DNA from: Escherichia coli
GTDB lineage: Bacteria; Pseudomonadota; Gammaproteobacteria; Enterobacterales; Enterobacteriaceae
Length of the DNA stretch: 1,168 nt
Strand: one strand, 5' to 3'
Assembly (NCBI RefSeq): GCF_003334765.1
Contig: NZ_QOWT01000084.1
Part shown: piece by piece, positions 768 to 1,092 of the stretch
How positions within the stretch are numbered: position 1 is the stretch's first letter
Layout: each line of letters starts with the position of its first letter
Position numbers and translations under genes: made by a program
Notes under the pieces: model-generated
The model's input: only the letters and a program-made list of their open reading frames with translations
Database searches by the model: none
Told to the model about the DNA's origin: nothing

Positions 768-1092
768 CAATATATTTTTCTTTAAACTCTATAATAAATT
801 GTGGCACAAATTTCTCTAAATAGCTATAACGAATACTGCTACATATCCGATAACATCAGTGATTATCTTCTTCCTGATTGCAAAAGAATCTGCCTCTAAC
901 CCATATATTTTATCTTACACAGCATCCTTAACAAAAGCTGTTATGATATAATTTACCATAAATATAATCTCATTTTGTCTAAGCTAGTATCCAGGATATT
1001 TGGGAGGAGACTTTGGATACCAGGACAGGAAAAGACTAGCAAATGTTGAGCATTCTCTGTAAGTGATGAAGATAAATAAAATTTTGGGAACA
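768..1092. other. AT-rich non-coding spacer between the int terminator and the IS1 end
   Basis: No ATG-initiated ORF of meaningful length on either strand (six-frame track is empty here; my manual scan found only ORFs of 17 codons or fewer). Hand count over 771-1090 gives about 221 A+T out of 320 (~69%), versus roughly balanced composition across most of the int coding region. Confidence 0.6.

Follow-up and report, generated by a model that had tools for sequence, protein, structure and literature searches.

The IS1 copy that begins close to the end of the window (by which we mean the whole 1,168-nt stretch of Escherichia coli DNA analyzed here) has no target-site duplication (TSD), and it very probably marks a rearrangement junction, not a simple insertion. 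As to the specific cause, we lean slightly toward an adjacent deletion mediated by IS1 itself. Many complete E. coli genomes contain the entire window at 100% identity, for example those of EAEC 042, ETEC E24377A, and the O104:H4 outbreak strains, and the full copy of the element was read in complete genomes.

Upstream of the element, the window holds the end of an integrase gene and a spacer. The open reading frame at positions 1–735 (plus strand) is the 3′ part, 735 nt long, of a gene for a P4-type tyrosine integrase (intP4) that belongs to a tRNA-Phe genomic island; its stop codon occupies positions 733–735, and the start of the gene lies upstream of the window. The encoded protein is RefSeq WP_001218809.1 (“tyrosine-type recombinase/integrase”), is located directly downstream of tRNA-Phe in 042, E24377A, and O104:H4, and has a domain match to NCBIfam NF007246 (E = 6e-36). 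Directly after the integrase, a consensus scan placed a terminator-like hairpin at 734–765, overlapping the stop codon. With its 14-pair stem, its GCCCGG/CCGGGC core, and T-runs on both sides, this hairpin looks like a bidirectional intrinsic terminator, a resemblance that is a pattern match only: the scan found one site in the window, and shuffled sequences yielded a mean of 0.8. The spacer between the integrase and IS1 (736–1092) is AT-rich, at 32% GC overall and 27.5% GC in its last 40 bp, and is rare among complete E. coli genomes (51 of 5,426). One genome, DLI.5a, carries an extra ISKpn26 (IS5 family) in this spacer, about 100 bp upstream of IS1 at approximately window position 987 (locus ~4249–5450).

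The first 76 bases of IS1 occupy positions 1093–1168 (plus strand), and the window ends inside the element. Base 1093 opens GGTGATGCTGCCAACTTACTGAT, and the 23-nt left terminal inverted repeat (IRL; 1093–1115, plus strand) pairs with an arm at 7838–7860 of the 042 locus. In full-length copies, these arms are complementary at 18 of 23 positions and form the very ends of a 768-bp element, whose termini begin GGTGATG and GGTAATG and whose right end reads ...GTTGGAGTCATTACC. The full IS1 measures 768 bp in 042, E24377A, and O104:H4 (locus 7093–7860), as well as in two independent metagenome contigs. IS1-family elements possess two overlapping frames, insA and insB′, which are fused by a programmed −1 frameshift to yield the transposase. 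Positions 1148–1168 (plus strand) encode the first seven codons of the insA frame, starting with GTG; the RefSeq transposase coding sequence starts at 7148 of the 042 locus, which is window position 1148. RefSeq annotates the whole as an IS1-like element IS1A family transposase with a programmed frameshift, its coding sequence joined from two pieces. A sequence-only reading of this DNA had identified the element as IS1, positioned the IRL, and predicted a length of about 768 bp; the 768-bp copies with repeats at their exact ends and the RefSeq annotation prove it right on all three points.

The position of the left boundary also has support that is independent of the element: the similarity of the window to the IS-free islands of strains CH4784 and Rb-50 ends at position 1092. 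The boundary is uncertain by two bases, because the IS1 and IS-free sequences both continue with GG. Overall, the length of about 768 bp and the imperfect terminal inverted repeats of about 23 bp are those of the IS1 family, although only the first 76 bp lie in the window. The element resembles the IS1A-type IS1 of E. coli in its 768-bp length, its 23-nt imperfect inverted repeats, its transposase annotation, and its AT-rich site. It differs from a freshly inserted copy of that type in lacking the 8–9-bp direct repeat of a simple insertion.

An 8–9-bp direct target duplication is the footprint of simple insertion and not a property of the IS1 element itself. The nine bases that abut the IRL, TTGGGAACA (1084–1092), occur once in the window, even with one mismatch allowed. 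A lone 9-mer of this kind cannot be tested against chance, whereas its duplication can. That TTGGGAACA lies directly against the IRL, as the sequence-only reading had it, is borne out by the sequence and by the CH4784/Rb-50 boundary; its further proposal that these bases are a candidate TSD is not. The check it had suggested, a comparison of TTGGGAACA with the 9-mer beyond the right inverted repeat (IRR), was run in complete genomes and gave no match: in 042, E24377A, and O104:H4 the IRR is followed by CCCTCTCTG, identical to TTGGGAACA at 0 of 9 positions. Near-copies of either 9-mer (two or fewer mismatches) were absent within 60 bp on the opposite side of IS1, and a repeat finder reported no direct repeat linking the two IS1 flanks. 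No 8–9-bp direct repeat thus brackets the element, and TTGGGAACA is one unpaired copy of an IS1 target sequence.

The same structure recurs across many genomes. The left junction, represented by 75 bp of spacer and 75 bp of IS1, was found in 42 of the 5,426 complete E. coli genomes; the right junction was likewise found in 42, and 42 genomes carry both, beside tRNA-Phe, at pheU or pheV. In addition, two metagenome contigs that read through the element have the same 768 bp and the same right flank, CCCTCTCTG. Because so many independent assemblies carry the same junctions, an assembly artefact is ruled out. Nor does a simple insertion whose TSD has decayed by point mutation fare better. Nothing beyond general possibility speaks for either notion, and we regard the pair as scarcely credible: the 9-mers share none of their nine positions while the surrounding flanks are 97–100% identical to those of relatives, the flanks occupy different contexts in IS-free genomes, and the identical junctions come from 42 assemblies made in many laboratories as well as from independent metagenome contigs.

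Where does each flank belong? On the left, the integrase and spacer of the IS-free strains CH4784 and Rb-50 match those of the window at ~97% identity as far as ...CTGGGAACA. Their uninterrupted site reads CTGGGAACA/GGAGACAG (here and below, the slash marks the breakpoint) or, at greater length, ...AAAACTCTGGGAACA/GGAGACAGACCCGG..., beyond which the left flank leads to genes for an enolase-like protein, an SDR oxidoreductase, an MFS transporter, and a GntR regulator. This part of each locus lies at 4355–8354. In CH4784, a second, 5′-truncated integrase follows the cargo (1947–7670 of a further CH4784 locus), with a leoABC-tia module further on; the second integrase suggests that islands may have accreted in tandem at tRNA-Phe.

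The right flank, by comparison, matches more than 1,200 genomes and lies inside a gene annotated as YagK/YfjJ or as inovirus-type Gp2. Two IS-free genomes with YagK/YfjJ read ...AAGGCCATT/CCCTCTCTGATGG... through the breakpoint (longer: ...AATAAGGCCATT/CCCTCTCTGATGGCTGA...). The break falls exactly after nucleotide 150 (codon 50 of 188) of the 567-nt YagK/YfjJ coding sequence, such that the right flank starts with codon 51, and the 5′ part of the gene is not on the other side of IS1. The YagK/YfjJ protein matches Pfam PF11726; no NCBIfam family was found for the protein or its remnant. The remnant (042 locus 7861–8277) is decaying further, with a frameshift relative to intact genes at a poly-C tract ~90 bp past the junction. 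RefSeq annotates only internal fragments of it, namely a “hypothetical protein” and a 147-nt “replication initiation protein”.

Since the left and right sequences continue into unlike DNA in IS-free relatives, the two flanks must come from different contexts. This fact and the 5′ truncation of the right-hand gene together place IS1 on a fusion point, not inside a once-continuous target. A simple insertion would have left flanks that are contiguous in an empty-site relative and that share one 9-mer, and neither feature is present. Instead, we observe a single IS, no TSD, and a truncated flanking gene whose missing part is absent nearby, all as expected of a rearrangement junction. The sequence-only reading had raised an IS1-mediated deletion or a recombination between two IS1 copies as the alternative to a simple insertion, and the non-contiguous flanks and the severed gene on the right favor that alternative. 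It would therefore be a mistake to read the sequences flanking this IS1 as one interrupted target, and the downstream gene fragment is to be regarded as the remnant of a deletion, not as a gene split by an insertion.

How might such a junction have arisen? Copies of IS elements without TSDs commonly result from adjacent deletions or from inter-IS recombination (PMC11708052), and in three populations of the E. coli long-term evolution experiment, 14 of 14 IS150-associated deletions were accounted for as multistep adjacent deletions (PMC11708052). By the route that we favor, IS1 would have inserted into a CH4784-like spacer at (C/T)TGGGAACA, generating a 9-bp duplication. An adjacent deletion would have come next, through intramolecular replicative transposition of the right end of IS1 into a target further along the island. 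With this step the second 9-mer would have been lost, together with all DNA through codon 50 of YagK/YfjJ, and CCCTCTCTG would have become the right flank. We infer both the order of these events and the specific deletion mechanism. Counting outer junctions, all 42 genomes with both junctions agree in structure, although in three of them the spacing is other than 768 bp. The integrase and YagK have the same orientation here as in an intact island at tRNA-Leu, where they are ~14 kb apart and the integrase is a different one; this kept orientation suggests a deletion over an inversion.

A second route would start from two independent, like-oriented IS1 insertions, one duplicating TTGGGAACA in the spacer and the other duplicating CCCTCTCTG in YagK/YfjJ, followed by homologous recombination between them that deleted the intervening DNA and left one hybrid IS1. 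This sequence of events would yield exactly the observed structure, with one 9-mer surviving from each insertion, and we consider it possible, if rather less than probable. Carrier genomes hold several IS1 matches each, and inter-IS recombination is a recognized cause of missing TSDs (PMC11708052). Moreover, this very IS1 recombines with other IS1 copies: in MLI121 and BEC1-S17-ESBL-09 (BEC1-S17), a resistance block or its remnant stands between direct copies whose outer junctions are unchanged. Because the products of the two routes are identical, the sequence alone cannot separate an adjacent deletion from the recombination of two direct IS1 copies. Among the matches listed (at most 40 per record, which bears on about 370 IS1-rich records), neither of the reciprocal junctions that a two-copy ancestor or a translocation would leave appears in the 5,426 complete genomes: IRR joined to TTGGGAACA and GGAGACAG... 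was found in 0, and the 5′ part of YagK joined to CCCTCTCTG and IRL also in 0. Recombination of two copies needs three events, not two. We thus prefer one insertion and one adjacent deletion, because this requires fewer events than two insertions and a crossover, and because no reciprocal junction was found among those matches.

It is also conceivable that IS1 entered a double-strand break formed during an unrelated deletion or fusion, without a staggered cut by transposase. Such an entry would likewise leave no TSD and an IS at the center of a deletion, and IS insertion into a break without a TSD has been proposed for some IS5 and IS481 events (PMC11708052). That mechanism is itself a hypothesis, however, and has not been reported for IS1; the 14 IS150-associated deletions in PMC11708052 could all be accounted for as ordinary multistep adjacent deletions, and nothing at this site calls for another explanation. 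We therefore hold entry into a break to be very unlikely.

The junction resembles those left by IS adjacent deletions or inter-IS recombination in having a single IS, unrelated 9-mers, one flank that is a truncated gene, and a preserved flank orientation. It differs from them in that the available genomes did not reveal here how the region was arranged ancestrally or how much DNA was lost: no molecule with both flanks and the intervening DNA was present among the 5,426 complete E. coli genomes, and the metagenome scan yielded none either. CH4784 was considered as the direct ancestor and rejected, as it has no YagK/DUF2931/SNF2 module within 50 kb and its island, a mosaic arranged in tandem, includes a second, truncated integrase.

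The island that harbors the junction lies at pheV in O104:H4, E24377A, and 55989, and at pheU in 042, H3, and others. In O104:H4, this version of the island is GI-2, which carries a T6SS, pic, and antigen 43 (PMC3551546). According to a 2024 study (PMC11537424), pheV islands are mosaics in which insertion sequences separate the modules and intP4 is the sole conserved gene. The accessible parts of these two papers make no mention of this IS1 or of the scar described below. The arrangement as such is of a known sort: an ordinary IS1 where an IS-associated deletion or fusion took place long ago, followed at the same site by two further changes that are themselves of familiar types. Across enteroaggregative, Shiga-toxin O104:H4, and enterotoxigenic E. 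coli, the site acts as a minor center of island plasticity and occurs in three states. In the first of them, the IS1 state, it tends to break short-read assemblies at the repeat.

The second state is a scar. The 51 genomes that have the spacer comprise the 42 with the IS1 junction, CH4784 and Rb-50, and seven in which the spacer directly precedes the YagK remnant: 55989, UMNK88, and ETEC1749 at pheV, and H3, UPEC69, HSP425, and AF58 at pheU. The module of integrase, spacer, IS1 or scar, and YagK remnant thus occurs at either tRNA-Phe gene, and both states occur at both sites. In the scar genomes the spacer is 100% identical to that of the window, and the junction reads ...TTTTGGGAACAGGTGATGGCTGATTTT.... 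It keeps GGTGATG, the first seven bases of the IRL (window 1093–1099; 5354–5360 of the L010 scar locus), and it lacks CCCTCTC, seven bases that belong to the genuine YagK sequence in IS-free genomes.

A simulated 773-bp deletion between two copies of TGATG reproduced the 55989 sequence exactly. One of these copies lies inside the IRL at IS1 positions 3–7 (window 1095–1099) and is the left microhomology copy of the deletion; the other is 8–12 bp beyond the IRR, outside the window. The endpoints of the deletion are hence at a short direct repeat of which one copy was kept, the signature of a loss at microhomology. Because bases of the IRL are retained and the simulation is exact, the scar genomes descend from the IS1-bearing form. 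The seven IS1-less genomes could otherwise have passed for the ancestral empty site, a candidate that we rejected given the retained GGTGATG of the IRL and the 7 bp of YagK that were lost. Indeed, the scar state is easily mistaken for a site that never held IS1. It was found in exactly seven of the 5,426 complete genomes and in two metagenome contigs; a scan of metagenome contigs for other continuations of the spacer returned only the IS1 and scar states.

The literature describes a low basal excision of IS1 that is stimulated by the IS-excision enhancer IEE, which has microhomology-mediated end-joining activity. At this site, the deletion endpoints are close to the base of a stem that the two inverted repeats could form. 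The geometry of the scar matches that of classical nearly precise excision by replication slippage, which may have produced it, and it would suit microhomology-mediated end joining as well. The iee determinant rides on islands such as the serX island. The serX island of O104:H4 (iha, tellurite resistance) is reported to be absent from 55989 (PMC3551546); as a pointer on the involvement of IEE, a 55989 without the serX island is only an indirect hint. The event resembles nearly precise or imprecise excision (Tn10; basal and IEE-stimulated IS1) in that its endpoints are short repeats near the ends of the element and a fragment of the IRL is left behind. Unlike those systems, it involves no TSD, its 5-bp repeat has one copy in the IRL and the other in the flank, and it also removes 7 bp of flanking DNA.

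Did the deletion occur once? One allele of the remnant open reading frame, WP_001406640, accompanies IS1 in E24377A, MLI121, and BEC1-S17 and accompanies the scar in UMNK88 and ETEC1749; the other, WP_001387038, is found with IS1 in 042, O104:H4, and DLI.5a and with the scar in the other five scar genomes. As all four combinations of allele and state exist, either the deletion recurred or recombination shuffled the region. In a comparison of SNPs in the flanks, 1,250 bp contained only five variable columns, which does not suffice for a tree, for dating, or for an event count. That the same 773-bp TGATG deletion happened independently in several lineages is a tentative idea that we think unlikely; it would make this site a hotspot for site-specific IS loss, to which the IS1 inverted repeats or end joining of the IEE type might contribute. 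If true, the recurrent deletion would be a natural example of the purging of a TSD-less IS that leaves a recognizable 7-bp scar.

In the third state, a chromosomal CTX-M-15 multidrug-resistance block has come in by way of the resident IS1. The spacing between the junctions departs from 768 bp in three of the 42 genomes (MLI121, MLI114, and BEC1-S17). In MLI121, ~36 kb lie between two direct IS1 copies at this exact site (locus 1367–38466). This block contains merR, Tn3 fragments, ISEcp1-blaCTX-M-15, blaTEM-1, tet(A), and a mer operon, as well as a class 1 integron (intI1, dfrA5, qacEdelta1, sul1), TnAs3, and a catA remnant beside IS1. MLI114 has the same 37.1-kb junction spacing as MLI121 and, judged from that spacing alone, presumably carries the same block. 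BEC1-S17 retains a 1.1-kb remnant of it.

In both MLI121 and BEC1-S17, the outer junctions (TTGGGAACA/IRL and IRR/CCCTCTCTG) are unchanged and the inner junctions are new. A resistance unit bounded by IS1 that came in through recombination inside the resident IS1 would produce this pattern. The genomes with two IS1 copies (MLI121, MLI114, and BEC1-S17) were also considered as an ancestral two-copy state; this candidate was rejected, the DNA between the copies being a recent resistance block with its own inner junctions. We take the MLI121 block to resemble the r-determinant of R100/Tn2670, a likeness drawn from gene content and not from a reference alignment. Like the IS1-bounded determinant of R100/NR1-type plasmids (Tn2670-like), it holds mer, a class 1 integron, tet(A), and a catA remnant between direct IS1 copies. 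The right-hand IS1 copy of MLI121 displays six extra differences, clustered at IS1 positions 262–396, and this cluster may mark the crossover with the incoming IS1. The resident IS1 itself differs at three positions between 042 and E24377A/O104:H4 when compared within IS1 positions 250–554.
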